A stretch of DNA of 64,000 nt from Candidatus Saccharimonadales bacterium. GTDB taxonomy: Bacteria > Patescibacteriota > Saccharimonadia > Saccharimonadales > JAXHNE01. Positions 7,538 through 26,993 of the stretch are shown in pieces; the first letter of the stretch is position 1; each line of letters begins with the position of its first letter. The DNA lies in the NCBI GenBank assembly GCA_041600755.1, contig JBFIJL010000001.1, positions 56,798 through 120,797 of the forward strand, in the 5' to 3' direction. The position numbers were made by a program, and so were the translations under genes. The notes beneath the pieces are model-generated. The model worked only from the letters and a program-made list of their open reading frames with translations, was not told the origin of the DNA and made no database searches.

Positions 7538-8833
7538 CTACGAATCCTTATTCTGGAGTGCCTCAACACCCGGTAATTGCTTGCCACTCATGAGCTCTAG
7601 ACTCGCACCACCACCTGTAGACACATGATTGAAGTGATCTAGTAAACCCTCCGACTCAACATAACCAACCGTATCTCCACCGCCAACAAGCGTAAATGGC
7701 TTATTTCCATAAGCTCCAAGCATGGCATTCATAATAACGTCGGTTCCATGGGCAAAAGGACCAACGGGGCCCTGCAATCCATCTTGCTCGGTTACGCCCA
7801 TGCCACCGTTCCAAACAACCGTTTCGGAAAGTTGCAAACATCCCGCAATGAACGATCCAGAGAAAGGTCCAATATCTAAAATCATCTCGTCGGCTGCAAT
7901 GGTAGTTGCGCTCTTACTGGCTCTTTTTGGATACGCCTCAATATCTGCAATCACATGTGCGTCCCAATCAACAATTCGAGTCGACGCAGACTTATCAATC
8001 TTTTTCGCTACCACGCCATCTTGGGGAATATAGAATACAAAGTTCTCCTTTGCGGTTCTAGCTTTCGCCTTTGCAATGATTTTTTTGGCGATCGGAACGT
8101 CCTCTGGTTCTACTAAGCTTTTTGCAACATCTATCCCTTCGGCCAATAAGAATGTATTGGCCATTGCGCCGCCAACCGCCACGATGTCTGCGATTTCTAT
8201 AAACCTATTCAAAATCTCTATCTTGTCGCTTATTTTTGCGCCACCAATAATTGCCATCAGCGGACGAGTTGGTCTTTCCATTACATCACTAATCGTTGTC
8301 ACTTCTTTTTCTAACAGCAAGCCCGCAACACTTTGGATATGTCTTGTTACTGCGTCAGTTGAGGCGTGAGCACGGTGCACAACACCAAAAGCATCCTGCA
8401 CAAAAACGTCCGCCAACGAGGCCAGCTGCCGTCCAAAACCATCATCGTTGGCTTCTTCGTCGTCATGATATCGTAAGTTTTCCAGCAATATAATCTCGTC
8501 CTGCTTTGCATGATTAATCAGTTCGACAACTTCTTCTCCGACACAATCTTTTGCTAGTGTAACGTCAGCTCCTGTCAACTTCTGCAACTGCTTAGCAACT
8601 GGCTTCATTGAAACCGACTGATCATCTGCACTTTTGGGTCTACCAAGATGCGAACAGATGACTATCTTGCAGTTCTGTTCACGCAAATATTGAATCGTGG
8701 GCAATGACTGCAAAATTCGATAATCGCTGGTGATTTTTCCATTCTCGAGCGGCACATTATAGTCAGCACGCAATAGGACAGTCTTACCGTGTATGTCGAT
8801 GTCTTTGATTGTTTTTTTATAAAATCCCACCAC
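7538..8833 (-). CDS. pgk: Phosphoglycerate kinase
   Basis: GKTVLLRADYNVP N-terminal motif; C-terminal GGGASLELM; 431 aa. Confidence 0.9.
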   Translation of the reverse strand: MVGFYKKTIKDIDIHGKTVLLRADYNVPLENGKITSDYRILQSLPTIQYLREQNCKIVICSHLGRPKSADDQSVSMKPVAKQLQKLTGADVTLAKDCVGEEVVELINHAKQDEIILLENLRYHDDEEANDDGFGRQLASLADVFVQDAFGVVHRAHASTDAVTRHIQSVAGLLLEKEVTTISDVMERPTRPLMAIIGGAKISDKIEILNRFIEIADIVAVGGAMANTFLLAEGIDVAKSLVEPEDVPIAKKIIAKAKARTAKENFVFYIPQDGVVAKKIDKSASTRIVDWDAHVIADIEAYPKRASKSATTIAADEMILDIGPFSGSFIAGCLQLSETVVWNGGMGVTEQDGLQGPVGPFAHGTDVIMNAMLGAYGNKPFTLVGGGDTVGYVESEGLLDHFNHVSTGGGASLELMSGKQLPGVEALQNKDS

Positions 8834-10966: not shown

Positions 10967-12559
10967 TTAGAGGAAGCGTCGTGAAAGAACAATTTTGTGA
11001 GCGAATCCTGCGGCAATTGTAGCTGCTGCAAAGATGCCGATCATATCTGCTGGGCCTGTCTTTGGAAGTTCAGGCGTAACACAGTCAGGGCTGTTCTTTG
11101 GCAAGTTTTCTTTGCCTGGGATTGGGCAGTTCTCAACTTCTTTTTCGGTGTTGATAACAACCTTACAGCTTTCGCCTGACTTGCTTTGCACTGCACCATC
11201 AACATTGAAGTCAACAGTTAGGGATGCAGCATAGTCGCCAGACTTAGCATATGTGTGCTCAACAACTGTCTTGTCGGTCACCATAACTTCAGTCTTGTCG
11301 CCAAAGTCATATCGGTATTGCTTGATAGTCGCACCGCCAGTAGCAGTAGCTTTCGCAGTGAACTGGTATTTTAGGTTTCCTAGTTTCTTTAGTTCAAGCA
11401 AATCACAGCTGTAAGTAGGCGTTACTTCATCACAGTTTTCTTTTGTGACGATAACTGTAGCGTCATCTTCCTGTTGAGTAACATCATCTGCTCGAACTCG
11501 AGCAATGTTCTTGAGCGTAGTGACACACTCTTCGAGCTCGCTTGCCGCTGCAATCTTGGTGTCGAACGTAATGTAGCCATTCGAACCGCTCGTGTATGAA
11601 CCAGCGTTTACGCCGTTTGAGTCAAACAAATCTTCGTCATCAAGTGCAAGTCCGTTTTTGTGAGCTGCGTCTACTAGCTTTACGCTTCCGTCGACAACAT
11701 CAAGGTTCGCAGGAAGCGTATCCTTAATGGTTGTATTGTTCAACTGTGCAGTTCCAACGTTCTTATATGTAATGAGCCACTTGGCTATGTCACCTGGTTT
11801 TGCGTGAGCTGAATCCTGGTATGATCCATCACCAACTTTCACTTTCTTCTCAAATTCAACGGCAGGGGCCTTTACTTTAACCTTGATGTACACGAACGCC
11901 TGGTATTCGAAACAACCTGGCAATACACCATTCAACTGATTGTAGCCAATCGTTGCGCCGTCAGTCACGATGCTATCGCTAAGAGCAAATCCCGTGCCAC
12001 CGTTATGACCAGTTACGAGCGTTGCAGAGCCTGGAATATATTCAAGACTGAAGGCGTTTTCGCCAACAAACTCAGATGTATCAGATACAACTGCAGGGGT
12101 TGCGTTACTTGCAGAGATATAGCTTGTAGCTTTTAGATTCTGTGCTGTTCCTGTAGGGAGCTTAAATCGCACTTTTGCGTCCTTTGCAACAGTAGGTCCG
12201 TCGTAGTTCTCGCCATTCAAGTCCTGGTTGCCGTTGTTGTGAACATACACACGAAGCGTAAGTTCATCTCCAGCGTCAACGCCGCCAAGAACATCCTTAT
12301 AGTTGTCTGCCGCATCGTTCCCAACACCTTCACGAGCATCAAAGAAATGCCGTTCATCACCGTAGTATGGCGTGTTGACGAACGAGTTGAATACGACCTT
12401 GTCGAATCCACCTCGGTCTGTAGTATTATTCCAATCCTTTATAGGGCGTTCTGGGAAGAAGCCGGCAAAAGCAATGGCAGGAACTGCGATTGCAGTTGCA
12501 GCAAAGATTGCAAGTGTTGCCTTTTTGCTGTTAGCCTTGATGTATTGTAGTACTTTCAT
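10967..12559 (-). CDS. Secreted surface protein with LPXTG cell-wall sorting signal
   Basis: N-terminal signal peptide (MKVLQYIKANSKKATLAIFAATAIAVPAIAFA). C-terminal LPKTGP + hydrophobic stretch + RRFL tail = classical sortase substrate. Confidence 0.75.
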   Translation of the reverse strand: MKVLQYIKANSKKATLAIFAATAIAVPAIAFAGFFPERPIKDWNNTTDRGGFDKVVFNSFVNTPYYGDERHFFDAREGVGNDAADNYKDVLGGVDAGDELTLRVYVHNNGNQDLNGENYDGPTVAKDAKVRFKLPTGTAQNLKATSYISASNATPAVVSDTSEFVGENAFSLEYIPGSATLVTGHNGGTGFALSDSIVTDGATIGYNQLNGVLPGCFEYQAFVYIKVKVKAPAVEFEKKVKVGDGSYQDSAHAKPGDIAKWLITYKNVGTAQLNNTTIKDTLPANLDVVDGSVKLVDAAHKNGLALDDEDLFDSNGVNAGSYTSGSNGYITFDTKIAAASELEECVTTLKNIARVRADDVTQQEDDATVIVTKENCDEVTPTYSCDLLELKKLGNLKYQFTAKATATGGATIKQYRYDFGDKTEVMVTDKTVVEHTYAKSGDYAASLTVDFNVDGAVQSKSGESCKVVINTEKEVENCPIPGKENLPKNSPDCVTPELPKTGPADMIGIFAAATIAAGFAHKIVLSRRFL

Positions 12560-12584
12560 GGTTGTCTCCTTTACTTATTCTGAC

Positions 12585-14141
12585 TTAGTCTTCTAGCTCA
12601 ACTTCAATTGGAGCGAGGCCGTTTGGTGCACTCGAGTATCTTCGACGCTGCTCGAATGTGAGTCCTGCAATGCCTCCGGCTGCAATGACTGACATTGGAA
12701 CCGGCACAGTGCCGTCACTTGGTGATTCAGGTGTATTAATTGGCTCATCAGGAGCTTCTGCTTCAGGGATGCTGGTCGTAGTGTTTGGGTTCTCACCTGG
12801 CAAGTAACCATCCTCGTCTTGACCTTCATTATCAGTGTCAGGAACATTCGGATTCTCGCCTGGATCTCCAGGTTCTTGATCCTCATAACCAGGAATTGTA
12901 GGAAGCGGTTTAGGTGTCTTGGGAGTCGTAGTGGTTGTTGTCTCTGGGGTAGTGGTCGAAGTGGTGGTTGTTGTCTCTGGAGCAGTAGTAGACGTGGTTG
13001 GTGGGGTTGTAGTTGGAGGAGGGGTCGTTGTTGTTGGTGGGGTTGTAGTTGTAGGAGTTTCCTCTTCTGGAGTTTCAGGGATTTCAACAGAATCAAACGG
13101 CTGGAAGCCACAGTCTACGCGTGCTGCAATAGTCTGTACATTGCCGTCTTCGTCCAAGAAGCTAATCAAAGCGATTGCGTCATTGGCGCCAACTGCACGG
13201 TCGAGGTCATATGCTAATACGCCGTTTGCGTTATAAGCCATGTTCTTGTAATTTGCGCTATCAGAATTGAGTGTTACAACCCGAATTTCTGTTATATCAG
13301 AATTAAATATACGAGTATCTTCAAGCATAGACTCAGGTACACCGGCGTTCTTCAATGCTTCCTTGAGTACATCGCCTTGGTTCTGCTCATAACCGTTTTG
13401 TGCAGTCAGCATGTTTTGACCCATTTCAATTGCGCCGTTAGTTGTAATTTCTGAACCATTCCATGTTCCACCATTAAGAGATGAACCACTCATTTCGTGC
13501 ACGCCTGGAAGTTCTGCGTCTTTATCGTTTATAAATGTAACGTCGTCCATAGAGAGACCTATCGATTCAAGTTTTTCAATCTGATCAAGTCGCATCTCGG
13601 CACGGTTTCGGTTGGTTAGTTCACCTGATGCTTCAGCTTCGGATGCATCATTGTCGGCTTGTGTAGTCTCGGTGGTCTCTGAAGTAGTGGTGGTTGACCC
13701 ATCAACAGCGCCAACGATTTCACGGTGCGCTGGCTTATCTGCTTCGTTTTTTGCAAAAGCAAAGATTCCAGCAGCAACAACTGCTCCAAGTGCAGTAGCG
13801 GCTATCAATTTTCTGCCTCGACTCCACTTGCCTTCAGGAGCAGCCTCATCGTCAGTAGCTTCATCGTAATCATTCTCGCGACGCTTTTCACGCTCACCGG
13901 CAAACTTGCCTTTTGTCCCTTGTTCAGGCACCAAAATAGGCTCAATTTCTTTTTGATCCTGATCAAAAAGCTTTACTTCATCCTTTTCGACACTACTCTT
14001 CAGCAATGCGCCACTTTCCATAAAAGTAGCAAGCTGCGCTGACATGGCCTGGACCTGTTCTCGAAGTTCAGCTATTTCTGCACGCATCTGGTTAAGTACT
14101 TCAGATTCTGGATACTGTTTTAAAATTTCTGGGTTGCTCAT
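12585..14141 (-). CDS. Membrane-anchored Thr/Pro-rich (mucin-like) surface protein
   Basis: TM helix near residue 115; long TTTTPPTTTTPPPTTTPPTT low-complexity linker encoded by DNA-level tandem repeats at ~12900-13080; C-terminal hydrophobic segment. Confidence 0.55.
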   Translation of the reverse strand: MSNPEILKQYPESEVLNQMRAEIAELREQVQAMSAQLATFMESGALLKSSVEKDEVKLFDQDQKEIEPILVPEQGTKGKFAGEREKRRENDYDEATDDEAAPEGKWSRGRKLIAATALGAVVAAGIFAFAKNEADKPAHREIVGAVDGSTTTTSETTETTQADNDASEAEASGELTNRNRAEMRLDQIEKLESIGLSMDDVTFINDKDAELPGVHEMSGSSLNGGTWNGSEITTNGAIEMGQNMLTAQNGYEQNQGDVLKEALKNAGVPESMLEDTRIFNSDITEIRVVTLNSDSANYKNMAYNANGVLAYDLDRAVGANDAIALISFLDEDGNVQTIAARVDCGFQPFDSVEIPETPEEETPTTTTPPTTTTPPPTTTPPTTSTTAPETTTTTSTTTPETTTTTTPKTPKPLPTIPGYEDQEPGDPGENPNVPDTDNEGQDEDGYLPGENPNTTTSIPEAEAPDEPINTPESPSDGTVPVPMSVIAAGGIAGLTFEQRRRYSSAPNGLAPIEVELED

Positions 14142-14295
14142 TGTAATGATTCCTCCCCGTAAGGGTTAATTACTATCTCCACCGTGCCACCTCTGTTAGT
14201 AGAGATATTCACGTTCAAAATCTATTCTATCACTAATAAACATAAATGTCAATAGATATCACAATAATATCGTCAATAGCACAAGCGTGATGAAT

Positions 14296-16512
14296 CTAGG
14301 CTTCTTTTTTGAGTTCTTCGGCGATCTGTTCTAGCTTTTTCTTGGCAAACGTAAAGCCAAAAGTGCTGCCCTTGCCTTCTTCGGTTTCAAAGATTATTGC
14401 ACCGCCTTGAGTCACTACAACCTTCTTGGCCATAAATAGACCAAGCCCAGTCCCGTCTGGCCGAGCTTTGCGTGCATTTCCAGCGCGGAAAAATTTGCTA
14501 AACAGATTATGTCGCTCGGATTTTGGAACACCCATACCGGTGTCTTTTACTGTATATTCGATAGTTTCACCCTTGTCCACCAATCCAACCTCAATTTTTC
14601 CACCAGCTGGTGTGTAGTAGATGGCATTGTCTATAAAGTTCATTATCACCTGGCGAATCTTGGTTTCGTCAATCATGACTGACGGGAAGTTCTTTGGCTT
14701 TTTAAAACTCAGTTTCAAATCGCGAGATTTAGCTGTTGGTTGTAGCTGTTCCACCTCTGTTTCAATCACTTTAGCAAGATCAGTTTCTTTAGGATCAATC
14801 ACGAATTTGCCAGTTTTGAGCCGAGATACGTTCAAGAGGTCGGCAATCAGGTACACCATGCGCTGTGAGCTCAGATACGCCTGTTCTAGCATCTTGTTTT
14901 GCTTGTCGTTCACTTCACCCACATCACCCTCAAGAACCATACTCAAATAGCCCTTGACGCTTGTAAGCGGCGTGCGCAGCTGATGCGACGCCATACTAAT
15001 GAACTCATCCTTAGTCTCATCCATCTGTTTGAGCTTTTCATTGGTCCGCTGAAGCTCTTTTGTGGCCGATTCCACCTTGTCCTGGAGTGTACTGGCAAAT
15101 TTCTCAATTTCCTCGTATCGCAAGGCATTTTGAATGGCAATCACTAGTTCGTTCAATATGATAGTCATCATGCGAATATCCTGCTTGTTGTATGGATTTC
15201 CGCTCTTTTTGGCCCCTAAGATAAGGTAACCTAAGCCTTCGAGGTTGGCTTCGCTCTCTGCTGCAAGCCGTCCGAGTACTGCAACATCATACTTTTGCAT
15301 CATGTGCTTTATTTCGCTAGATTCGTCCATTTCATCCGCAATAAATACATTCATGTTCTGTGAAGGCGTCAACTTACGAATCTTCTCTATATCCTCTTTG
15401 TGAAAGTCCTTCGGAACAGTACCTATGACACGTTGCGGTGAATATGCCGTTTCTTTCAGTCCAAACAGGCTAAACTGACTCTTTAGATTGGTGTCAATAA
15501 TCTCGGCACAGCGTCGAAGCAAAAGCTCGAGGTCGACAGTAGACACCAACTCTTTATTGAGCTGATCCAGAAAAACCTGAGGATCATAAGCATCCCTATA
15601 AAAAACGAAGTTAGTTTTTTTGTCGAAAAACCTCTTGAGTCCCTGAAACGACAAACCGATAAATAGTGCCGAAAGAGCGTAGAACACCTGCTCCGATAGT
15701 TTAATCTCATCCCCTGAAAAAATAACAACCGAAAGAGTCACTACGGTTAGAGAATATACAAGACCAAAGGTTAGTATTGATAAAAGATAGGCAGCTGATC
15801 GTGCAATAACAAGACGAACGTCAAATAAACCTTGTCTAAATAATCCATAAATTGTTAATCCTGTATAGAAAAACGGAGCACAATATCCAATAGCATAAAA
15901 CGTAGTATTGTCTCCAAATGCCAATGGAAGAACTATGATAAAAACTATTGCATGTACAATTGTAAGGGTTAAACCAGCCATAAGTGTAGACACCTGGCTT
16001 TTCAGCTTTTTATCTGCGCCACCTCTTAAAGATTTCGCGTTTTCTATATACACACTTGCGCAGACCAAAAGTGCGAGAACTGCCAGGATGGACGAGCCAG
16101 GCCCAGGTATATATTCTGCATTCCCTTCAAAAACGAACTCTCCAGATACAAATACAGTAGGCGAGGCTGCTATAGTTAATGCGGAAATTCCAAAGACTAT
16201 CTTTTGAAGTCTTTTGAACTGCTTCTTTTCAGGAAAATATAGACTAAAGAGATAGATGAAGAAAACTGACATTCCACCAAACATAAAACCAAGAATATTT
16301 GCAAAGTTAAAAAAATGCAGGTTTGAAACTGTTGCGTACGTATCTACATATAGAAGAAAAACATTAATCAGTGTCCATATGAAAATAGTACTGCACAATG
16401 CAGCAAATACTTTTTGTACACTAGAGTTTGACCGACGCCCTTCCAGCGCCATCCCAAGACTAATAAGAAGCTGGAAGACTGCAATTATCAACAATAGGGG
16501 TACTAAAAACAT
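14296..16512 (-). CDS. Sensor histidine kinase with multi-pass membrane N-terminal sensor region
   Basis: ≥7 predicted TM helices in the N-terminal ~380 aa. HisKA motif SHQLRTPLTSVKGY; HATPase_c (…DNAIYYTPAGG…DTGMGVP…GTGLGLF…). Confidence 0.85.
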   Translation of the reverse strand: MFLVPLLLIIAVFQLLISLGMALEGRRSNSSVQKVFAALCSTIFIWTLINVFLLYVDTYATVSNLHFFNFANILGFMFGGMSVFFIYLFSLYFPEKKQFKRLQKIVFGISALTIAASPTVFVSGEFVFEGNAEYIPGPGSSILAVLALLVCASVYIENAKSLRGGADKKLKSQVSTLMAGLTLTIVHAIVFIIVLPLAFGDNTTFYAIGYCAPFFYTGLTIYGLFRQGLFDVRLVIARSAAYLLSILTFGLVYSLTVVTLSVVIFSGDEIKLSEQVFYALSALFIGLSFQGLKRFFDKKTNFVFYRDAYDPQVFLDQLNKELVSTVDLELLLRRCAEIIDTNLKSQFSLFGLKETAYSPQRVIGTVPKDFHKEDIEKIRKLTPSQNMNVFIADEMDESSEIKHMMQKYDVAVLGRLAAESEANLEGLGYLILGAKKSGNPYNKQDIRMMTIILNELVIAIQNALRYEEIEKFASTLQDKVESATKELQRTNEKLKQMDETKDEFISMASHQLRTPLTSVKGYLSMVLEGDVGEVNDKQNKMLEQAYLSSQRMVYLIADLLNVSRLKTGKFVIDPKETDLAKVIETEVEQLQPTAKSRDLKLSFKKPKNFPSVMIDETKIRQVIMNFIDNAIYYTPAGGKIEVGLVDKGETIEYTVKDTGMGVPKSERHNLFSKFFRAGNARKARPDGTGLGLFMAKKVVVTQGGAIIFETEEGKGSTFGFTFAKKKLEQIAEELKKEA

Positions 16513-17380: not shown

Positions 17381-18015
17381 TACTCCTCGTCCTTGACTAA
17401 ATTGTTTTTAGCTTGCATTTTCCGAATAAGCTTAGAAGCGCCAAATCTAGCACCCACTAAAGCAAATATTCCTGCGCCTATGTGTTCCGGTTCTGGCACC
17501 TCGATACCCTTGGCCATGAAATATCCCTGTACTGCGCAAAAGCCACTCAAACCCACTGCGCTCCTAGCCCCGTATCTTCGATTTTCTGCTTCTGTGCGGT
17601 TTGGGTTTTCCCTGTCAATAAGTAGCATACTGATCGCAGTCCCACCAACTAAGGCAGCTGCCCCTTTAGTGATTGAACTTGTTTTTGCATCTTTAGATAT
17701 TCCAACTTTTTCAAGAAGATTATTAGCTTTATCAAGACTCTTTTTTGCAACATTACTATCAAGTGCTCGAGCAGATGCAAAGCCTGCGGCTCCCTCTATG
17801 GCGAATGTTGCTGCGCCATAGGCACCTGCAGAGATAATCGGATTTCCATATGCTGCTTGCGCTGCACCAAATACACCAAAACGCATTGCTTCATTAGCAA
17901 ACGTCACCTCCGCAGCTATCACTAGTCCGCTAATTGCATCAAGCGCCTTGCTTCTTTCAGACTTCAGTTCAAAATTCTCTGAACCAGACTCAAGATCATA
18001 ATTAACATCAACCAT
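17380..18015 (-). CDS. Hypothetical Gly/Ala-rich membrane protein
   Basis: GxxxG/A-rich hydrophobic segments (FGVFGAAQAAYGNPIISAGAYGAATFAIEGAAGFASA); glycine-zipper-like. Confidence 0.4.
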   Translation of the reverse strand: MVDVNYDLESGSENFELKSERSKALDAISGLVIAAEVTFANEAMRFGVFGAAQAAYGNPIISAGAYGAATFAIEGAAGFASARALDSNVAKKSLDKANNLLEKVGISKDAKTSSITKGAAALVGGTAISMLLIDRENPNRTEAENRRYGARSAVGLSGFCAVQGYFMAKGIEVPEPEHIGAGIFALVGARFGASKLIRKMQAKNNLVKDEE

Positions 18016-18527
18016 TATTTATCTCCGATTAAATGCGCAGCATTCTGCCAGTCACTTGCTTGGAAAACAGCAACAACCATTGCGCACACTGGATGGTGTT
18101 TGCAGGTTTTACCTACGACTTTCATGTTAATTTCACCGAAATCAACGTTTCGAGTAGCCATCAGCGCCTCTAAGCTTTGTCGAATATCGCCTCTTACAGA
18201 TGACTCGCTATTGCCTTCATGCTCTACAAATAGACCCTTTTTGGATCCTTTTTCTTGCACCCAGCCAATGCCAGCCCATGCCTCTTCGTTGGGCTTTTCA
18301 ACTCGCTCTTCAGCCATGACAACATAAAGACGATCGCCCCAGCCACCTGGCATAATTTCGGCAGGGATTGGACCATGTTCATGAACCACAATATTAGTGT
18401 TTGGGGGAACTACTGAACTAAGTTTTAGTAAATTAAAATTAGCAATCCCCGCATCGTTCAATGCTGCGTCAAATGCTGCTAGTTTAGTTGGCCCCGACCC
18501 GATTCCTGGCGCTACATGAATATCCAT
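18015..18527 (-). CDS. pdaD: Pyruvoyl-dependent arginine decarboxylase (PdaD family)
   Basis: MDIHVAPGIGSGPTKLAAFDAALNDAGIANFNLLKLSSVVPP contains the conserved self-cleavage Ser-Ser context of PdaD proenzymes; size ~170 aa. Start moved to the internal Met preceded by AAGGAA. Confidence 0.65.
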   Translation of the reverse strand: MDIHVAPGIGSGPTKLAAFDAALNDAGIANFNLLKLSSVVPPNTNIVVHEHGPIPAEIMPGGWGDRLYVVMAEERVEKPNEEAWAGIGWVQEKGSKKGLFVEHEGNSESSVRGDIRQSLEALMATRNVDFGEINMKVVGKTCKHHPVCAMVVAVFQASDWQNAAHLIGDK

Positions 18528-18667
18528 ACTAATAATTCCTTTCAAATAAAAAACAGCATGTCGTTGCCTCAAATTGAGGACTGACATGCTGTTTTGTTTA
18601 CTAATGTACTGCCTTGCATGATACCACAAGCGGTGTATAATGTCAACTATATAATTAAAACAGAAAA

Positions 18668-19072
18668 TTGCAAACTATGAAAATTGCTATCATTGAAGAT
18701 GACCGACCTATAGCTAGTATGTATCAGCAAAAGCTGAAACTGGCGAACCATCAGGTGCGCTGCGCTTTTGACGGCGAGGAAGGATTGACCATGCTTGAGG
18801 ACTTCCAGCCAGACGTTGCGCTCGTTGACCTCAAAATGCCAAAAATGACCGGCGATGCAATGCTCGAAATTATCCGCAAGACTGAGTGGGGTGCAAGTCT
18901 ACGCGTAATCATCCTTACCAACATCAGCAAAGATGAAGCTCCCAACAACTTACGGTTCATGAGCATTGACAGGTACATCGTTAAGGCACACTACACGCCA
19001 AACCAGGTGCTGGCTGTAGTTAACGAAGTGCTCGGCATTAAGCCACAAAACTTATCCACCAAAACTCAGTAA
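18668..19072 (+). CDS. Stand-alone response-regulator receiver protein (CheY-like), paralog 1 of 4
   Basis: IAIIEDD...VALVDLKMP...VIILTN...YIVKA: acidic pocket, phospho-Asp, T and K positions conserved; no output domain. Confidence 0.8.
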   Translation: MQTMKIAIIEDDRPIASMYQQKLKLANHQVRCAFDGEEGLTMLEDFQPDVALVDLKMPKMTGDAMLEIIRKTEWGASLRVIILTNISKDEAPNNLRFMSIDRYIVKAHYTPNQVLAVVNEVLGIKPQNLSTKTQ

Positions 19073-19198
19073 AAAACCCAACAAAACCAACTTGTGCATC
19101 CATAAGCGCTTTGGTACTGTATAGTTTCCGCGCGAATTTAAACAGAGATTTTTACGAAGGAAAACTAACAACATAAACGACAGAGTTTTGGAGGATTT

Positions 19199-19576
19199 TT
19201 GGTGCAAAAAATAGCCATCGTGCAGCATGATGATGCAATACGCAACATGTACAAGCTCAAGTTTGAGCAAGGACGATTTAGGGTCAAAACCGCCCGCTGC
19301 GGTCAAACTGCATTGGACCTACTGCGTGATTTTTGGCCGGACGTCGTTCTTATGGACATGCACCTGCCATTTTTGAGTGGTCTTGAGGCTGTAGAAAGAC
19401 TCCAAAATTATCCGTTATTTTCTCGGCCTAAAATTATTTTGACTTCAAATCTTGACGAAGAACAGGCGGCCAAAAAGTTTGGACACCTTGGAATTGATGG
19501 CTACATCCTAAAAGCGAACCACACTCCTTCTGAAATTCTTGGTATAGTACAAGGTATGATTGGAGCAACAGCTTGA
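19199..19576 (+). CDS. Stand-alone receiver-domain protein, paralog 2 (divergent acidic pocket QHDD)
   Basis: IAIVQHDD...VVLMDMHLP...IILTSN...YILKA. 4-nt overlap with the next paralog (translational coupling). Confidence 0.75.
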   Translation: MVQKIAIVQHDDAIRNMYKLKFEQGRFRVKTARCGQTALDLLRDFWPDVVLMDMHLPFLSGLEAVERLQNYPLFSRPKIILTSNLDEEQAAKKFGHLGIDGYILKANHTPSEILGIVQGMIGATA

Positions 19577-19938
19577 AAAAAATTATCCTCGTCGAAGATG
19601 ATGAGATGTTGGCAGAAATATACCAAACTAGATTGCAACTTGCAGACTTTGAATGCAAACGAGCCAATAATGGACTGGCTGGACTGGAACTCATCCAAAA
19701 AGAACTACCTGACCTCGTATTACTTGATCTGATGATGCCGATAATGTCAGGCGATCAAGTGCTTGAAGCAATTCGTACCAGCGACTGGGGAAAAGACATG
19801 AAAGTCATAATCCTTACCAATATTAGTGAGGCAGAAGCACCAGACATTATTAACGAGCTCGGTATCGAACGCTACATCGTAAAAGCCAATATTGTCCACG
19901 ATCAACTGGTTGAGGCTGTTAACGAAGTCCTAAAATAG
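19573..19938 (+). CDS. Stand-alone receiver-domain protein, paralog 3
   Basis: IILVEDD...LVLLDLMMP...VIILTN...YIVKA. Confidence 0.8.
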   Translation: MKKIILVEDDEMLAEIYQTRLQLADFECKRANNGLAGLELIQKELPDLVLLDLMMPIMSGDQVLEAIRTSDWGKDMKVIILTNISEAEAPDIINELGIERYIVKANIVHDQLVEAVNEVLK

Positions 19939-19982
19939 TTCAGGCGCTTGAGTTTATCCTTGTGTTGCCCTAGAATCTAAAC

Positions 19983-20348
19983 ATGGCAACTAAGATAGCA
20001 ATTATTGAAGACGACCAAGCTATCTCCCAGATGTACCGCATCAAGTTCGAAGCCGAGGGTTACGAAGTAGAAACTGCGGAAAACGGAAAACTGGGCCTCT
20101 TATTGATTGAAAAAATGAACCCAGACATTATTTTGCTGGATCTTATGATGCCAGAGATGACTGGCGATGAAATGCTAGAAAAGCTTCGGGCTAGCGATTT
20201 CGGCAAAGACACTAAAGTCGTTATTCTTACCAACATGGGCGAACAAGAAGTGCCTCAGAAAGTCAAAGACCTTGGCGTGGTTGACGTCATCCTAAAAGCC
20301 GACATGACCCCTCGGCAAGTAGCCGAACTTGTAAAAGCCAATCTATAA
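19983..20348 (+). CDS. Stand-alone receiver-domain protein, paralog 4
   Basis: IAIIEDD...IILLDLMMP...VVILTN...VILKA. Confidence 0.8.
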   Translation: MATKIAIIEDDQAISQMYRIKFEAEGYEVETAENGKLGLLLIEKMNPDIILLDLMMPEMTGDEMLEKLRASDFGKDTKVVILTNMGEQEVPQKVKDLGVVDVILKADMTPRQVAELVKANL

Positions 20349-20467: not shown

Positions 20468-20497
20468 AAACCCCGCTCCGGCGGGGTTCTTTTTTTG
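20468..20497 (+). terminator. Rho-independent terminator after the receiver-protein array
   Basis: aaccccgc-tccg-gcggggtt followed by ctttttttg. Confidence 0.6.
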
Positions 20498-20589
20498 TCT
20501 TGAACAAAGAACTCACCTAGGGCCAGTCCACAAAGAAAAATCAATCAACAACCATACGAGCATCTTTTTCGCTCGCAAAAGGAAAATAT

Positions 20590-20979
20590 ATGAGAACTTT
20601 AGAACGACAATCAAATCAATTACATCTTCCATCGTGGATGCTCGAAGCAAGAATGAGACCTGAGCCACTCCGCGTCCATGGTAGGCCATTTGTATTCTGG
20701 TCTGCAAACGGCGAGGAAGAAGATCTTTACAACAACAATTGTGAAGTCATAGAGGTGTCCATCAGAGTCGGCAGAATTGCGATTCAAACCGTTTCCGCTA
20801 TTGGTCACAGAGGTATCGATCCTGCCTTTACTGGATCATACCCAGTAATCATAGGGTCAGACGAAGCAACCAACGAGTATATATTTGGTGTACGGCCAGA
20901 GCTTGAATTTCGGGTAGAGGCATTTTCTGACCTCGTACCAGAAGAATTTCAGATGACTGACTGGGGGCAGACATGTTAA
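20590..20979 (+). CDS. Hypothetical protein, first gene of a three-gene operon
   Basis: 129 aa; stop overlaps the start of the next ORF by 7 nt; no recognised motif. Confidence 0.45.
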   Translation: MRTLERQSNQLHLPSWMLEARMRPEPLRVHGRPFVFWSANGEEEDLYNNNCEVIEVSIRVGRIAIQTVSAIGHRGIDPAFTGSYPVIIGSDEATNEYIFGVRPELEFRVEAFSDLVPEEFQMTDWGQTC

Positions 20980-21719
20980 ATGCAGCAACTCAAGCCCATT
21001 TTGAGGCAATTCTATCAAATCCAGAGCGACTTACAGTCGTATCTGAACGAATCGCTTCATCTGTCAGTGCGGCACATGAGGATGGCAACTTCATTCTTGA
21101 ACGTGACGCTTCACAAATTTCACATCAACTTCGTGGCGGTATGGCGACTTTTTTACCAGCGACGACACCCCAGGGAACAGACAGCTTTCTGTACTACATG
21201 GGCGCCCAGTACCTACCCACCCAAAACTACCACAGTGAATATCCTGTAATAGAAGGTGGAACACTGATTGCTAACTCCGACAAAGAACTGCTCGCCTGCT
21301 CGCGTGGTCGCGCGTCTGACGTCGTTCAAAACCTTGGCAGACTGGCATTTATCCCAAGCAATGGGCTCATCATCTACACATCAAGGTCTACCCCAAGCGT
21401 GCGAGCACTTACCGGCGGCGGCGCAAAACTACTTCAGCGTAGAGACTTTCCAATGCTTGATGCACTCACTTGCGATTCTGCATGCCTACCCAGCCCCCAA
21501 GGACCCATCGCTACCATTGGAACTATTGCTGTCTTTGCGGACGGCAGCGACCGCATTGAATGCCCAGTCAATGAAGCATATGCCGACGGGGCACTAGCTG
21601 ATGCCTGCTTTTTGTTAACAAATGACTGTGACCGAGCTTACGAAATGGAATCCCGCCTTTCTGAAGACTTTAATGGCTCGGCTCAAACGGTCCGCGCAAC
21701 ACTCATAGGAGGTGCGTAA
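20973..21719 (+). CDS. Hypothetical protein, second gene of the operon
   Basis: 248 aa; overlaps the downstream gene by 8 nt; Cys-rich C-terminal third; no recognised family. Confidence 0.45.
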   Translation: MLNAATQAHFEAILSNPERLTVVSERIASSVSAAHEDGNFILERDASQISHQLRGGMATFLPATTPQGTDSFLYYMGAQYLPTQNYHSEYPVIEGGTLIANSDKELLACSRGRASDVVQNLGRLAFIPSNGLIIYTSRSTPSVRALTGGGAKLLQRRDFPMLDALTCDSACLPSPQGPIATIGTIAVFADGSDRIECPVNEAYADGALADACFLLTNDCDRAYEMESRLSEDFNGSAQTVRATLIGGA

Positions 21720-22677
21720 CATGCAACATATAGACGACATACTGTTATACAACAACCCGGCTGGTCAACCGGCCTTGTGTCCGGTACTTCAGATTGGGAC
21801 AGGAGCACCACACACCGTACTGGTTGCATTGCAGCATGGCTGGGAGCTCATTGGACTCGATACAGCCCTGCAAACTGTTGCGAACGCCCCAGAAGTTCAA
21901 GGAACAATTACGCTGCTAGCCGCAGCCAATCCACTTGGGTATCTAGATCGCAGTCGATTTGTCGCCGCTCAGCAAGATCCGATGTCTGGAATTACACAAA
22001 ACCTAAATAGAGTGCACCCCGGCAATACAACTGGCACAATTTCAGAACAATCGGCGGCGGCTATTGATGCCTATATTTCCGGCTTGCAACCTGATTTTGT
22101 TCTAGATTTACACGCCTATGCATCTCAATCAGTACCGCACGCAATCCTAGACCCTTGCGATGGCGAACTTCAACATGTCATGCAACGCTACCTTCAAACT
22201 GCGCAGATTGCCTGGTACCGTGAATTTGAAGGCGAAACACTTCAGGAACAAGTACTCACGAGTGCACTAAGCGCAGTCTGGCTAAACAGAGGCGTGCCAG
22301 CATTAACAATCGAGCTCGGGCCGCTAGACAGCTTTAGCGTCGAAGAATCTCAAGCTGCTCAGCAAACACTACGAAATATGCTCATAAGTATCGGCGCAAT
22401 GAATGGTGCAATCGCACCAACAACGTATTTGGATACTTCACAGCCATTTAGTAGGAACGAAATTCGATACACAGGAGCAGCTGGAGGCTATATCCGATAT
22501 CTCGTCCCTATCCTCACGCAAGTTCAGGAAGGTGAGGCTGTGGCTGAAATTATCGCACTTAATGGCAACATTGTAGATATAATGTATGCGGAAAATGATG
22601 GAGTGGTATTTATTTGGCACGATGAGTACCGCGTCATGAGTGGCTCGGTAATTGGAATTTTACTCACCACTCCCTAG
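21712..22677 (+). CDS. Succinylglutamate desuccinylase/aspartoacylase (AstE/AspA) family zinc deacylase-like protein
   Basis: HGWE (family HGNE zinc site), ...NLNRVHPG... (family DLNRxFPG), DLHAY (second His ligand); 321 aa. Confidence 0.5.
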   Translation: MRNMQHIDDILLYNNPAGQPALCPVLQIGTGAPHTVLVALQHGWELIGLDTALQTVANAPEVQGTITLLAAANPLGYLDRSRFVAAQQDPMSGITQNLNRVHPGNTTGTISEQSAAAIDAYISGLQPDFVLDLHAYASQSVPHAILDPCDGELQHVMQRYLQTAQIAWYREFEGETLQEQVLTSALSAVWLNRGVPALTIELGPLDSFSVEESQAAQQTLRNMLISIGAMNGAIAPTTYLDTSQPFSRNEIRYTGAAGGYIRYLVPILTQVQEGEAVAEIIALNGNIVDIMYAENDGVVFIWHDEYRVMSGSVIGILLTTP

Positions 22678-22706
22678 AGTCGAGGTTTATTGCTACAATA
22701 CAGGTT

Positions 22707-24029
22707 ATGAAGATAGCAATTCTGGGATTTGGAGCCCAAGGCAGATCAGCTTATGAGTACTGGAACACTCCAGACAACCAACTGACAATCTGCGATACAA
22801 ATACTGATTTAGAAGCACCTGGTGAGGCTTCAACAAAACTTGGTCCAAATTATCTCAATGATTTAGGCCAGTTTGACATGCTCATCAGAACACCAATATT
22901 ACACCCTCGAGATATCACATCCGCTAATCCAGAATCACCTGACATACTAGCTAAAGTCTGGTCCAATACCAATGAATTCATGAAAGTCTGTCCAACAAGA
23001 AATATCATTGGAGTCACGGGCACCAAAGGCAAAGGCACTACTAGCACCCTCATTACAAAAATGCTCGAAGCCGCAGGCAAAACTGTGCATCTTGGCGGCA
23101 ATATAGGTATTCCGCCGCTCGAAATGCTGCATAGCGACATTCAACCAGATGACTGGGTGGTGCTTGAACTGGCCAACTTCCAGCTCATAGATCTGCAAAT
23201 CTCACCGCACATTGCAGTGTGTCTCATGGTAGAGCCAGAGCACATGGACTGGCACGCAGATTTTAAAGAGTACAAAGCCGCCAAGAAGCAGCTTTTTGCG
23301 CATCAATCTACAAAAGACACTGCTATTTTCTACGCAGATAATGAAACATCGAGAGAGATTGCGAGTCAGTCGCAATCTATGTTGATTCCATACTTTGCAA
23401 AACCCGGCGCAGTTGTTGAAGATGAAACGATAAAAATTGACGGAAATGAAATTTGTTCAGTACATGAACTAAAGCTACTAGGGAAGCACAACTGGCAAAA
23501 TGTCTGCGCTGCGGTAACTGCATTTTGGCAAATATCTCAGGACACCCAAGCTATACGATGGACTATAGACACCTTCTCTGGTCTTGAACATCGCCTGGAG
23601 CATGTAAGCACTATTGAAAAAGTAGATTACTACGATGATTCCTTTGGCACCACCCCAGAAACAGCAGTTGTCGCAATTGAGGCATTCGAACAACCTAAAA
23701 TTGTCATTCTTGGTGGATCAGATAAGCATGCTTCATATGACAAGTTGGCAAGAACGGTCGTAAACCACAATGTTAGATCGGTGATAGTAATTGGAGACAC
23801 GGCTTCAGAAATATCTACAGCCTTGAAGAATGAAGGCTTTTCATCCATAGAATCCGGTCCCCAAACTATGCCAGAAATTGTTGCCTTGGCCAGATCACTT
23901 GCTCAACCCGGAGATGTGGTACTTCTTTCGACTGGCTGTGCAAGCTTTGGTCTATTCAAGAACTACAAGGATCGAGGCGATCAATTTACGCAAGCTGTTC
24001 GATCACTCTCGCAAGCTGACGCACGATAG
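22707..24029 (+). CDS. murD: UDP-N-acetylmuramoylalanine--D-glutamate ligase
   Basis: Mur ligase P-loop IGVTGTKGKGTTSTLI; N-terminal Rossmann MKIAILGFGAQGRSAYEYW typical of MurD; 440 aa. Confidence 0.75.
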   Translation: MKIAILGFGAQGRSAYEYWNTPDNQLTICDTNTDLEAPGEASTKLGPNYLNDLGQFDMLIRTPILHPRDITSANPESPDILAKVWSNTNEFMKVCPTRNIIGVTGTKGKGTTSTLITKMLEAAGKTVHLGGNIGIPPLEMLHSDIQPDDWVVLELANFQLIDLQISPHIAVCLMVEPEHMDWHADFKEYKAAKKQLFAHQSTKDTAIFYADNETSREIASQSQSMLIPYFAKPGAVVEDETIKIDGNEICSVHELKLLGKHNWQNVCAAVTAFWQISQDTQAIRWTIDTFSGLEHRLEHVSTIEKVDYYDDSFGTTPETAVVAIEAFEQPKIVILGGSDKHASYDKLARTVVNHNVRSVIVIGDTASEISTALKNEGFSSIESGPQTMPEIVALARSLAQPGDVVLLSTGCASFGLFKNYKDRGDQFTQAVRSLSQADAR

Positions 24030-24636
24030 CAGACTCAGGCTGTAGCACCACTACGTTGTGAATATTTGCAATTTGCTTAATCTCGTTTTCTATCCAGTGA
24101 TAATGCGTACAGCCCAAAACTATTACATCAGCTCCCTTATCGCAAACAGCTGAAATTGTTTCTGCAATTTTTTCTTCATTTAGAGTTGAGCTCTCGATAA
24201 GTGCCGCCCAGTCCGAGCAGTCTGGCTCGATCACTGTCAGATTCTTTGCATAATTCTGCTTTAACCAAGCATAACGCTTACTTTTAAGTGTCGCTGGTGT
24301 AGCGCAAATTGCTATGACTCCTGATTTTGATTGCATTGAAGCGGGCTTCACCATTGGTTCGATGCCAATAATTGGAATATCTGTGCTGGCTCTGAGAAAT
24401 TCGATAGAATTAGTCGTTGCTGTGTTGCAGGCTAAGACTATGACTTCGCAGCCCTTACTGACAAATTTTACGATAAATGGCAGCAGGAGTTCATTTAGCT
24501 GAGCTACTGATTTATTTCCATAAGGTATGTTTTCACTGTCTTCAAGATATATTACTTCATGTTCCGGATAGGCTCTTGAGATAGCATTGACTACCGATTT
24601 GCCACCAATACCAGAATCGAATACGCCAATTTTCAT
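23986..24636 (-). CDS. murI: Glutamate racemase
   Basis: KIGVFDSGIGGKSV..., ...IPYGNKS..., ...VLACNTAT..., ...LGCTHYH... motifs; 216 aa (short); 3' end overlaps murD 3' end convergently by 44 nt. Confidence 0.75.
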   Translation of the reverse strand: MKIGVFDSGIGGKSVVNAISRAYPEHEVIYLEDSENIPYGNKSVAQLNELLLPFIVKFVSKGCEVIVLACNTATTNSIEFLRASTDIPIIGIEPMVKPASMQSKSGVIAICATPATLKSKRYAWLKQNYAKNLTVIEPDCSDWAALIESSTLNEEKIAETISAVCDKGADVIVLGCTHYHWIENEIKQIANIHNVVVLQPESAIVRQLARVIEQLA

Positions 24637-25520: not shown

Positions 25521-26993
25521 ATGTTAAAGCGGTTAAGGTATTTAACTTTAAGCTTCTCATTCCTCTTTGTTTTGTGCGGTCCAGGTTTTGTCCACGCTGA
25601 TTCGCCAGAGGCCCCGACAGATCCTAGCCTGCCGATAGTCCTTACAGAAATATATCCTAACGCACCTGGCAGCAAAGAGTCCGGAAACGATCCAACCAGC
25701 GACCCACTAGCAAATGAATACGTTGAACTATTCAATACAACGTCTATTTCTATCGAGCTGTCGTACTTTGTACTCAGCAGGGATGGCAGCGCAACGACAA
25801 CGTCACTTGATGGTCTCACGATTGAACCTCATGGTTACTTGGTGATTCTTCCAGATTTTAGTCTCATCAATGGTGGTGGCACCTTGCACCTCAGCTATGA
25901 ATACCCAGACCTTGACTCTAAAATCGACAGCTACACATATCCCGGCGATATCCCTGATACCCACTCCTGGTCTTTGATTGACAACATTTGGGAGCAGGCA
26001 GTTCCCTCTCCCAATGAAACCAACCCCCCTCCCATCCCCATAGACATTCCCGAGGAAGAGTCCAATGAAGAAGAGACTCCCGAAGAGCCAATCGAAACAT
26101 CCTGTCAAGTTGATGTGACTATCACGGAAATTGTAGCAAATCCAAAGGGGTCAGATAGTGATGGCGGTGAATTTATAGAGTTGTTTAATAACAACGACAA
26201 ACCGGCACTACTCACTGGCTGCATGCTTTCCACCGATAAAGCCCCTGCTATTCAACTAGCAGATATCTCATTGGAGTCAGGCGCATATATCGCAATTATG
26301 TTGAGCAATGACCTACTTAACGGTGGCGGTACAGTGCAGTTTACAAGCGACGACGAAGAAGATGTTGTTACTTACCCCGCACTCAGTGACGATGAATCAT
26401 GGTCACTGATTAATGGCGCATGGCAAATGTCCAAGGTATCAACGCCGAATGCCAAAAATGTATCGACGCCGGCAGAAGAGCCGACTGTCATAAAATCCAC
26501 TGCCCTTGAGCCCTGCCCAGAGGGAAAGTTTAGAAATCCAGAAACCAACAGATGCAAGACGATTGTCGAAACTGTCAGCGAGCTACTTCCCTGCAACCCC
26601 GGATCAACCAGAAATCCCGAGACTAATCGATGTCGTAAGATTGCCAGCTCGATATCTTCGACGCTCACACCATGCAAAGCTAATCAAGAGCGCAATCCTG
26701 AAACCAATCGTTGCAGATCAATTGCCTCAACGACAAGTAGTGAGCCAAAACCATGCGACGAAGGCTATGAAAGAAACTCAGAAACCAACCGCTGCCGCAA
26801 AGTTGCAGAAGTTCTTTCTGGAGCCACTATCGAGACTCCAGATAAAGAGGCAGGCTTGCATACAGGCGTATTTTTATTCATGTCTATACTCGTCATTAGC
26901 TATGGAGTCTATGAATATCGCCTGGACTTTCAAAATTTAATACATAAGATAAGAGAAAGAAGACTCATAAAATTCTTGCCAAAACAGAGGTAA
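25521..26993 (+). CDS. Secreted lamin-tail-domain (LTD) protein with C-terminal Cys-repeat region and TM anchor
   Basis: Signal peptide; two LTD-like segments (LTEIYPNAPGS...EYVELFN; ITEIVANPKGSDSDGGEFIELFN). Four repeats CxxxxxRNPETNRC(K/R); C-terminal TM (VFLFMSILVISYGVY). Confidence 0.7.
   Translation: MLKRLRYLTLSFSFLFVLCGPGFVHADSPEAPTDPSLPIVLTEIYPNAPGSKESGNDPTSDPLANEYVELFNTTSISIELSYFVLSRDGSATTTSLDGLTIEPHGYLVILPDFSLINGGGTLHLSYEYPDLDSKIDSYTYPGDIPDTHSWSLIDNIWEQAVPSPNETNPPPIPIDIPEEESNEEETPEEPIETSCQVDVTITEIVANPKGSDSDGGEFIELFNNNDKPALLTGCMLSTDKAPAIQLADISLESGAYIAIMLSNDLLNGGGTVQFTSDDEEDVVTYPALSDDESWSLINGAWQMSKVSTPNAKNVSTPAEEPTVIKSTALEPCPEGKFRNPETNRCKTIVETVSELLPCNPGSTRNPETNRCRKIASSISSTLTPCKANQERNPETNRCRSIASTTSSEPKPCDEGYERNSETNRCRKVAEVLSGATIETPDKEAGLHTGVFLFMSILVISYGVYEYRLDFQNLIHKIRERRLIKFLPKQR

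Follow-up and report, generated by a model that had tools for sequence, protein, structure and literature searches.

A rare, translationally coupled gene pair encoding a predicted AstE/AspA-family zinc amidohydrolase and a putative GNAT-like protein in a Candidatus Saccharimonadales genome

The locus described here lies in a window of 64,000 nucleotides (the whole stretch of DNA that was analysed) from Candidatus Saccharimonadales bacterium (GenBank assembly GCA_041600755.1, contig JBFIJL010000001.1, positions 56,798 to 120,797 of the forward strand). It carries three open reading frames (ORFs) in tight succession, termed g1, g2 and g3, which are all on the plus strand, are judged to be real and are followed by murD (Table 1). 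An initial annotation, made from the sequence alone, had described them as a three-gene operon. The shared strand and the tight coupling of the three ORFs are borne out, but the unit that is conserved among genomes is a rare, translationally coupled pair of two genes, g2 and g3, and g1 is without homologues in the related loci. The product of g3 is a predicted zinc amidohydrolase of the AstE/AspA family, and that of g2 is predicted to adopt a GNAT-like fold.

The strong terminator previously noted ahead of the region is confirmed. Its stem (20469-20488) has eight base pairs, six of them G-C, with a loop of four nucleotides, and runs into CTTTTTTTGT with its seven consecutive T; terminator-like sites in the region number 10, against 3.5 expected from shuffled sequences. 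For g1, the start at ATG 20590 (the NCBI call, 129 aa) is favoured over ATG 20638 (the Logan call, 113 aa), because a Shine-Dalgarno (SD) sequence is present only for the former. A short inverted repeat (CGAGC...GCTCG, 20555-20577) is found just 5' of this SD. In the 94-nt leader upstream of g1, a riboswitch was looked for and none was found; the leader matches no Rfam family, has no stable structure and folds no better than its shuffles (z = 0.28). Overlaps of 7 and 8 nt had been reported for the two gene junctions. The former is correct, g1 and g2 sharing the heptamer ATGTTAA, whereas the latter requires g3 to start at GTG 21712, a position already taken by the final G of a perfect AGGAGG SD. 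The start of g3 is most likely ATG 21721, which lies 8 nt 3' of the SD and matches both the N-termini of all homologues and the public 318-aa call. With this start, g2 and g3 are separated by a gap of 1 nt (TAA-c-ATG), which is still tight coupling.

Table 1. Features of the g1-g3 locus in the window, and clade-specific neighbours of the g2-g3 pair in other loci
Feature	Position	Strand	Description
Intrinsic terminator	20469..20497	+	closes the upstream response-regulator cluster; 5' boundary of the g1-g3 unit
SD-like AAAGGAAAA	20577..20585	+	6 nt ahead of the g1 ATG; direct sequence reading
g1	20590..20979	+	129 aa
g2	20973..21719	+	248 aa
g2 E94-G95-G96	21252..21260	+	central beta-strand (residues 92-100, model); E94 and G96 invariant in alignments A1 and A2
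g2 T136-S-R138-S-x-x-S142-x-R144	21378..21404	+	strand-helix junction (strand 132-137, helix 140-148, model)
g2 signature FPMLDALTCDxxC	21447..21485	+	most conserved stretch of the family; carries invariant C167 and C171
g2 C197 (CPV motif) and C212	21561..21608	+	C212 invariant in A1 and A2
g3 SD AGGAGG	21707..21712	+	inside the final g2 codons (…I-G-G-A*)
g3	21721..22677	+	318 aa; predicted AstE/AspA-family Zn-dependent N-acyl-amino-acid amidohydrolase; catalytic domain and C-terminal beta domain
g3 H39-G-W-E42 (HGWE)	21835..21846	+	two putative zinc ligands; match H50 and E53 of AbCphZ
g3 N94-L-N96-R97-V-H-P-G	22000..22023	+	putative pocket for the substrate alpha-carboxylate; N96 and R97 match N112 and R113 of AbCphZ
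g3 D129-L-H131	22105..22113	+	putative third zinc ligand; H131 matches H179 of AbCphZ
g3 E198 (in TIELG)	22312..22314	+	putative catalytic general base; matches E251 of AbCphZ
murD (UDP-MurNAc-L-Ala:D-Glu ligase)	22707..24029	+	Pfam Mur_ligase_M/C; 29 nt 3' of g3
Clade-specific neighbours of the pair	L002/L003 6284-6957, 9104-9656; L005 9035-9370; L010 7862-8245; L007 2845-3411		small zincin-like proteins and NUDIX hydrolases

In 10 loci, a g2-like gene and a g3-like gene lie side by side on the same strand, with either an overlap of 4-17 nt or no more than 4 nt between them. The labelled genomes among these loci are Candidatus Saccharibacteria. In most of the homologous loci, the SD of g3 (GAAGGAG or similar) is embedded in the conserved last codons of g2 (L-V/I-E/G-G) and the ATG of the g3 homologue follows 5-8 nt after it; in L005 and L010 the SD is reduced to GGA or GGAA. 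The position of this SD inside conserved g2 codons indicates that both proteins are made together. Additionally, the pairwise identities of g2 and g3 across loci are correlated (r = 0.83). Close relatives of g3 occur in only 2 of 185,579 species-representative genomes, a metagenome scan with g3 added two further loci only, and no literature was found on Saccharibacteria together with this family. Besides the pair itself, the loci hold clade-specific neighbours, namely small zincin-like proteins (DUF2268 upstream and Zincin_1 directly downstream) and NUDIX hydrolases. NUDIX, DUF2268 and Zincin_1 were each considered as a third conserved neighbour and rejected, as they recur within clades only.

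The g3 product had been assigned to the AstE/AspA-type zinc deacylases, and this assignment holds. It matches Pfam PF24827 (AstE_AspA_cat) over profile positions 4-190 of 192 (E = 2.9e-13; 50.3 bits, cut-off 25) and carries HGWE, NLNRVHPG and DLH together with the Glu of TIELG. The g3 family profile further aligns near full length with the structures of Mlr6093 (2qj8, 3.8e-11), CphZ (8ein, 2.2e-8) and DoeB (6twl, 6.4e-8), the alignment to the family extending through the C-terminal beta domain. The residues H39, E42, R79, N96, R97, H131 and E198 do not vary among 12 homologues. In AbCphZ, H50, E53 and H179 are the Zn ligands, E251 is essential, and R102, N112 and R113 are essential or substrate-binding (PMC9974463). 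Apart from the matches listed in Table 1, R79 of g3 corresponds to R102 of the AbCphZ carboxylate clamp. As in the known members of the family (AstE, ASPA, DoeB/EutE and CphZ), an H-x-x-E...H triad, a catalytic Glu and an R...N-R clamp are present in g3, which is accordingly predicted from its sequence to be a genuine zinc amidohydrolase of this M14-like family with a complete set of catalytic residues. The catalytic and carboxylate-clamp residues imply that it would cleave an N-acyl amino acid, in which the acyl group may be acetyl, succinyl or beta/gamma-aminoacyl. Four further invariant residues (H140, R245, R259 and R304) hint at an anionic acyl moiety.

Within its family, g3 appears to represent a separate subfamily and not an orthologue of AstE, DoeB or CphZ, because its identity to the nearest non-Saccharibacteria relatives is low (24-25%), it fails the cut-off for DoeB and it lacks the acidic pair of CphZ. 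As a candidate for the N-acetyl-2,4-diaminobutyrate deacetylase DoeB/EutE it reached 41.9 bits against the 402.7 required by the TIGR02994 equivalog. As a candidate CphZ, a cyanophycin dipeptide hydrolase, it was rejected since the D222/E223 pair of the Arg/Lys pocket aligns, in a low-confidence segment, to invariant L179 and to T180 (D/T/N). An M24 hydrolase such as the ectoine hydrolase of eutD/doeA was not found near any examined locus. The contexts of proteobacterial AstE-like genes at 25% identity were uninformative; RlmI-type methyltransferases, ThiF and an ABC transporter lie close to them.

The first two genes had been described as lacking a detectable family. Neither g1 nor g2 matches Pfam or NCBIfam, but g2 is, as judged from six relatives, a member of a small conserved and previously unannotated protein family. 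These relatives were obtained by an exhaustive phmmer search of 1.84 billion cluster representatives (E 1.5e-42 to 6.6e-4). There is likewise no sequence match to g2 in the PDB, where the profile search returned designed helical bundles only, and a word-indexed search of 5.8 billion proteins returned g2 itself only. A scan of GTDB genomes with the g2 profile yielded no match, but its sensitivity is limited, as the divergent L005 copy escaped it too.

Conservation in g2 was read from two family alignments, A1 and A2. The invariant residues of the family are E94, G96, T136, R138, S142, G150, C167, C171, C212 and R241. The E94 region is a candidate general base. The T-S-R-S-x-x-S-x-R motif, in which R144 is nearly invariant in addition to the residues named above, is a candidate binding site for an anion such as phosphate or carboxylate. 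From the signature around C167 and C171, PMLDALTC was taken as search pattern. The earlier description of g2 as Cys-rich in its C-terminal third is accurate, as five of its six Cys fall within residues 167-219. Among them, C197 is invariant in A2 and conserved at 90% or more in A1, and it is kept in all distinct members but P0019, which has Ile. Together, C167, C171, C197 and C212 probably form a four-Cys metal site for Zn or Fe-S.

An AlphaFold2 model of g2, built from seven sequences, is confident, with a predicted local distance difference test score (pLDDT) of 86.8 and a predicted template modelling score of 0.86; the pLDDT is lower (63-65) in the loops on either side of the Cys (residues 171-180 and 201-210). 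In a Foldseek search of the PDB with this model, the top 50 matches were all GNAT-fold enzymes, including NatA/Naa10, EctA, AANAT, BjaI, PAT/BAR and ArgA. These matches score weakly (E 8e-4 to 2e-2, template modelling scores 0.3-0.56, about 10% identity), with probabilities up to 1.00, and a structure search of BFVD pointed to GNAT likewise. The predicted core matches only GNAT structures (EctA, ArgA, Naa10, AANAT and LuxI-type synthases, the last of which are acyl-CoA-dependent). The model thus predicts g2 to be a very divergent GNAT-fold protein, and the order of its helices and strands would fit the GNAT succession beta2-beta3-beta4-alpha3-beta5-alpha4-beta6-beta7. It differs from the GNAT superfamily in having long N-terminal helices, a Cys-rich insertion of about 55 residues and two extra C-terminal helices. 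The four-Cys insertion would be placed between beta6 and beta7, a region that usually serves as the lid of the GNAT acceptor site. Candidate sites in place of the GNAT motif A are N-P-x-R-x-x-L and T-S-R-S-x-x-S-x-R. An hhalign match between the g2 family and Escherichia coli RimI (probability 1.25%; g2 213-231 vs RimI beta1-alpha1) was not significant and is not relied on.

Tentatively, and with slightly less than even confidence, g2 and g3 are read as a bi-enzyme module of acyl transfer and deacylation. The earlier suggestion of a modification/deacylation pathway gains support from the predicted acyltransferase-like fold of g2. In g3, Zn would be held by H39, E42 and H131 and water activated by E198, while R79, N96 and R97 would clamp the free alpha-carboxylate of the released amino acid. 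The g2 protein would N-acylate, or bind, the same class of amino-acid-like metabolite. The two would then install and remove an N-acyl group in a protect/deprotect or salvage/re-acylation cycle, whose intermediate steps, if any, would be encoded elsewhere. We infer here both the catalytic competence of g2 and the cooperation of the two proteins.

The proposed module is analogous in logic to AstA...AstE, EctA/DoeB and EutD-EutE. The genes for EutD and EutE are directly adjacent, and the two enzymes are both required and work as a bimodule (PMC8739950). The present locus resembles EutD-EutE (DoeA-DoeB) and the AST (arginine succinyltransferase) pathway, AstA...AstE, in the juxtaposition of a partner enzyme with an AstE/AspA-family deacylase. 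However, the g2-g3 module has two genes only and no intermediate enzymes, g2 is neither AstA (PF04958) nor an M24 hydrolase, and the module is restricted to Saccharibacteria-like genomes.

Several observations weigh against an acyl-transfer and deacylation module. If an acyltransferase and a deacylase act on one bond with no intervening steps, the result is a futile cycle, and an all-against-all comparison of neighbours revealed no third gene common to the g2-g3 loci. The canonical acetyl-coenzyme A (CoA) pyrophosphate motif of GNAT (motif A, Q/R-x-x-G-x-G/A) is absent from the g2 family alignment. None of the Pfam GNAT-clan families matches any of 12 g2-family members even at E <= 10, and neither HMMER nor hhalign detects a GNAT sequence signal in the family. 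Moreover, g2 diverges much faster than g3, the copies in L005 and L010 being 21% identical for g2 and 62% for g3. Finally, the genes also occur apart, g3 without g2 in L004 and g2 without g3 in L008/L009.

Some of these points would also suit a g2 that is not an enzyme. It could be a GNAT-fold ligand or redox sensor that regulates g3 or gives it specificity, with the four-Cys site as redox/metal switch, much as PanZ/PanM senses CoA through its GNAT fold and regulates PanD. The CoA motif is degenerate, a conserved Tyr general acid is missing, and g2 changes more rapidly than g3, which L004 retains although it has apparently lost g2; in addition, the tight translational coupling may point to a stoichiometric complex. 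This role of g2 is considered unlikely, as the invariant E94, T136, R138, S142 and R241 resemble an active or ligand site and g2 is found without g3 in L008.

The acyl-transfer and deacylation module has also to be weighed against the gene order in L004, a Candidatus Saccharibacteria metagenome-assembled genome (MAG) in which the g3 homologue P0010 sits. The order response regulator - g3 - murD - murI - folD of the window is kept there, with g3 inverted, and the neighbours are 59% (MurD), 64% (FolD), 51% (MurI) and 76% (response regulator) identical; the last value compares the regulator beside g3 in L004 with the last CheY-like regulator of the window. This kept order implies that g3 is old at this site. 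The gene g2 was not found in the L004 MAG. Directly upstream of the lone g3, a 45-aa ORF (7845-7982) is similar, in register, to the N-terminal end of g2 homologues. Its score of 20.4 bits falls near the 99th percentile for 1,000 shuffled sequences, which suggests, without proving, that it is the stub of a deleted g2. In the window, the interval between g3 and murD (22677-22707) lacks a terminator-like site. The transcription unit may thus hold four genes, and the g1-g3 unit is probably co-transcribed with murD in this genome. Nevertheless, murD is outside the conserved module, as it adjoins g3 only in the window and in L004. Further downstream, the convergent genes murD (+) and murI (-), which span 22707-24636, share 44 nt at their ends (23986-24029).

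From this neighbourhood, g3 alone could be a salvage aminoacylase or dipeptidase that releases an amino acid such as Glu or Asp from N-acyl amino acids of host origin, g2 being unrelated to it. The released amino acid could feed murI and murD, and the adjacency of g2 would be mere operon packing in a small genome. Characterised AstE/AspA members do release Glu, Asp, 2,4-diaminobutyrate or Arg/Lys, L004 has g3 without g2 at the syntenic site beside murD and murI, and murD follows g3 in the window after 29 nt with no terminator. This role and the packing that goes with it are both held to be rather improbable, because g2 and g3 adjoin, stop to start, in 10 loci whose surroundings are otherwise unrelated, a pattern not easily accounted for unless the two are functionally linked, and the adjacency of murD is confined to one clade.

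Unlike the conserved pair, g1 stands alone. Its 129-aa product is acidic (pI 4.7), a search of 5.8 billion proteins returned self-matches only, and tblastn found no homologue in the related loci and no paralogue elsewhere in the window. A single-sequence AlphaFold2 model was uninformative (pLDDT 31.7). Its coding signal is weak; still, g1 is probably a real gene, given its good SD, its overlap with the start of g2 and its best-frame coding statistics. It is regarded as a young, lineage-specific ORFan outside the conserved module. The idea that g1 is a frameshifted remnant of the N-terminal extension of g2 homologues was discarded, since no frame upstream of g2 resembles this extension. The codon-position Markov score, for which the window mean is 0.152 bits/codon (standard deviation 0.069), is typical for g3 (0.167), somewhat low for g2 (0.077) and very low for g1 (0.018), and the annotated frame is the best of six for all three genes.

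Base composition bears on the origin of the cluster, which had been described as GC-richer than its surroundings and as possibly acquired. The former is correct: at 48.7% GC, as compared with 44.7% for the window as a whole (z = 2.2), the 2,088-bp region ranks in the top 0.2% of sliding windows, and practically no other 2 kb of the window is richer in GC. However, GC is raised at codon positions 1 and 2 only (GC at position 2 of g2, 0.494 vs a mean of 0.376), which reflects an amino-acid composition rich in Ala, Gly and Arg. GC at position 3 is 0.430 for g2 and 0.411 for g3, against 0.422 ± 0.044 for 67 ORFs of the window, and the synonymous-codon log-likelihood is equally typical (0.048 and 0.039; mean of the same ORFs, 0.037). 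With typical third-position GC and codon usage, and with g3 at a syntenic site in a related genome, recent acquisition of the cluster is unsupported. A recently acquired foreign island is hence very unlikely, whether as a small biosynthetic/resistance cassette or as a GNAT toxin with an enzymatic antidote, and so is the logic that would go with it, namely N-acetylation for self-protection and deacetylation for activation, like pat/dea or pac/napH. Such an island would account for the GC-rich stretch, for the ORFan g1 with its atypical coding statistics and for the extremely rare and patchy family, with its two close g3 matches among the species-representative genomes, but it is at odds with the ordinary codon usage of g2 and g3 and the syntenic g3 of the related MAG. 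Furthermore, no relatives of g2 were found in plasmid and phage collections, none of the three genes has a significant match in the PADLOC (defence) and PHROGs (phage) libraries, and the flanks are without mobility genes or repeats. Known GNAT toxins, moreover, are about 170 aa long, have an intact CoA motif and are paired with a DNA-binding antitoxin.

Other features of the window and of the related loci deserve mention. Upstream of the terminator, there are four tandem genes for single-domain CheY-like response regulators (18668-20348, +), of which three start with TTG; they lie downstream of a gene on the opposite strand that encodes a histidine kinase of 738 aa (14296-16512, -). Polyamine-related genes are found near three loci, which may be coincidence: a pyruvoyl arginine decarboxylase in the window (18015-18629, -), an ornithine/diaminopimelate/arginine decarboxylase in L006 (2049-3290) and a spermine synthase in L008 (13782-15272). 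Downstream in the window, a 490-aa lamin-tail-domain protein (25521-26993, +) has a signal-like N-terminus, a C-terminal transmembrane segment and four tandem repeats of about 25 aa with the form C..G..RNPETNRC(R/K). A transfer-messenger RNA gene (223-602, -; Rfam RF00023, 64.2 bits) and seven scattered tRNA genes are also present in the window. In L004, a 504-aa protein, a ThiF-family protein and a nitroreductase-like protein are encoded in a row (11728-15332), which recalls peptide-modification clusters. In L005, a Candidatus Saccharibacteria MAG, a heliorhodopsin gene (14207-15037) is located 5 kb from the g2-g3 pair.

Saccharibacteria are episymbionts with reduced genomes that depend on their hosts for amino acids and cell-wall building blocks, and their accessory genes are mostly unannotated. 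Against this background, the g2-g3 pair is a real and modestly novel accessory enzyme pair, in which the g2 family was previously unannotated and an AstE-type deacylase with a partner is a known theme. A bolder and quite improbable possibility is that g2 founds a metal-containing (Cys4 Zn/Fe-S) GNAT branch without a canonical CoA site, in obligate complex with the g3 amidase, as a reversible N-acylation switch. If true, the switch would act on an amino-acid or cell-wall precursor, such as D/L-Glu near murI and murD, and would serve to manage host-scavenged metabolites. In any case, g2 passes from a 'hypothetical' protein to a testable hypothesis, that of a GNAT-like protein with a putative metal-binding insertion, and the module with its predicted deacylase g3 can serve as a defined target in screens for substrates. 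Should g2 turn out to be an active, metal-bearing GNAT that lacks the CoA motif, the known diversity of the superfamily would be widened; otherwise, g2 and g3 would be an ordinary accessory metabolic pair.

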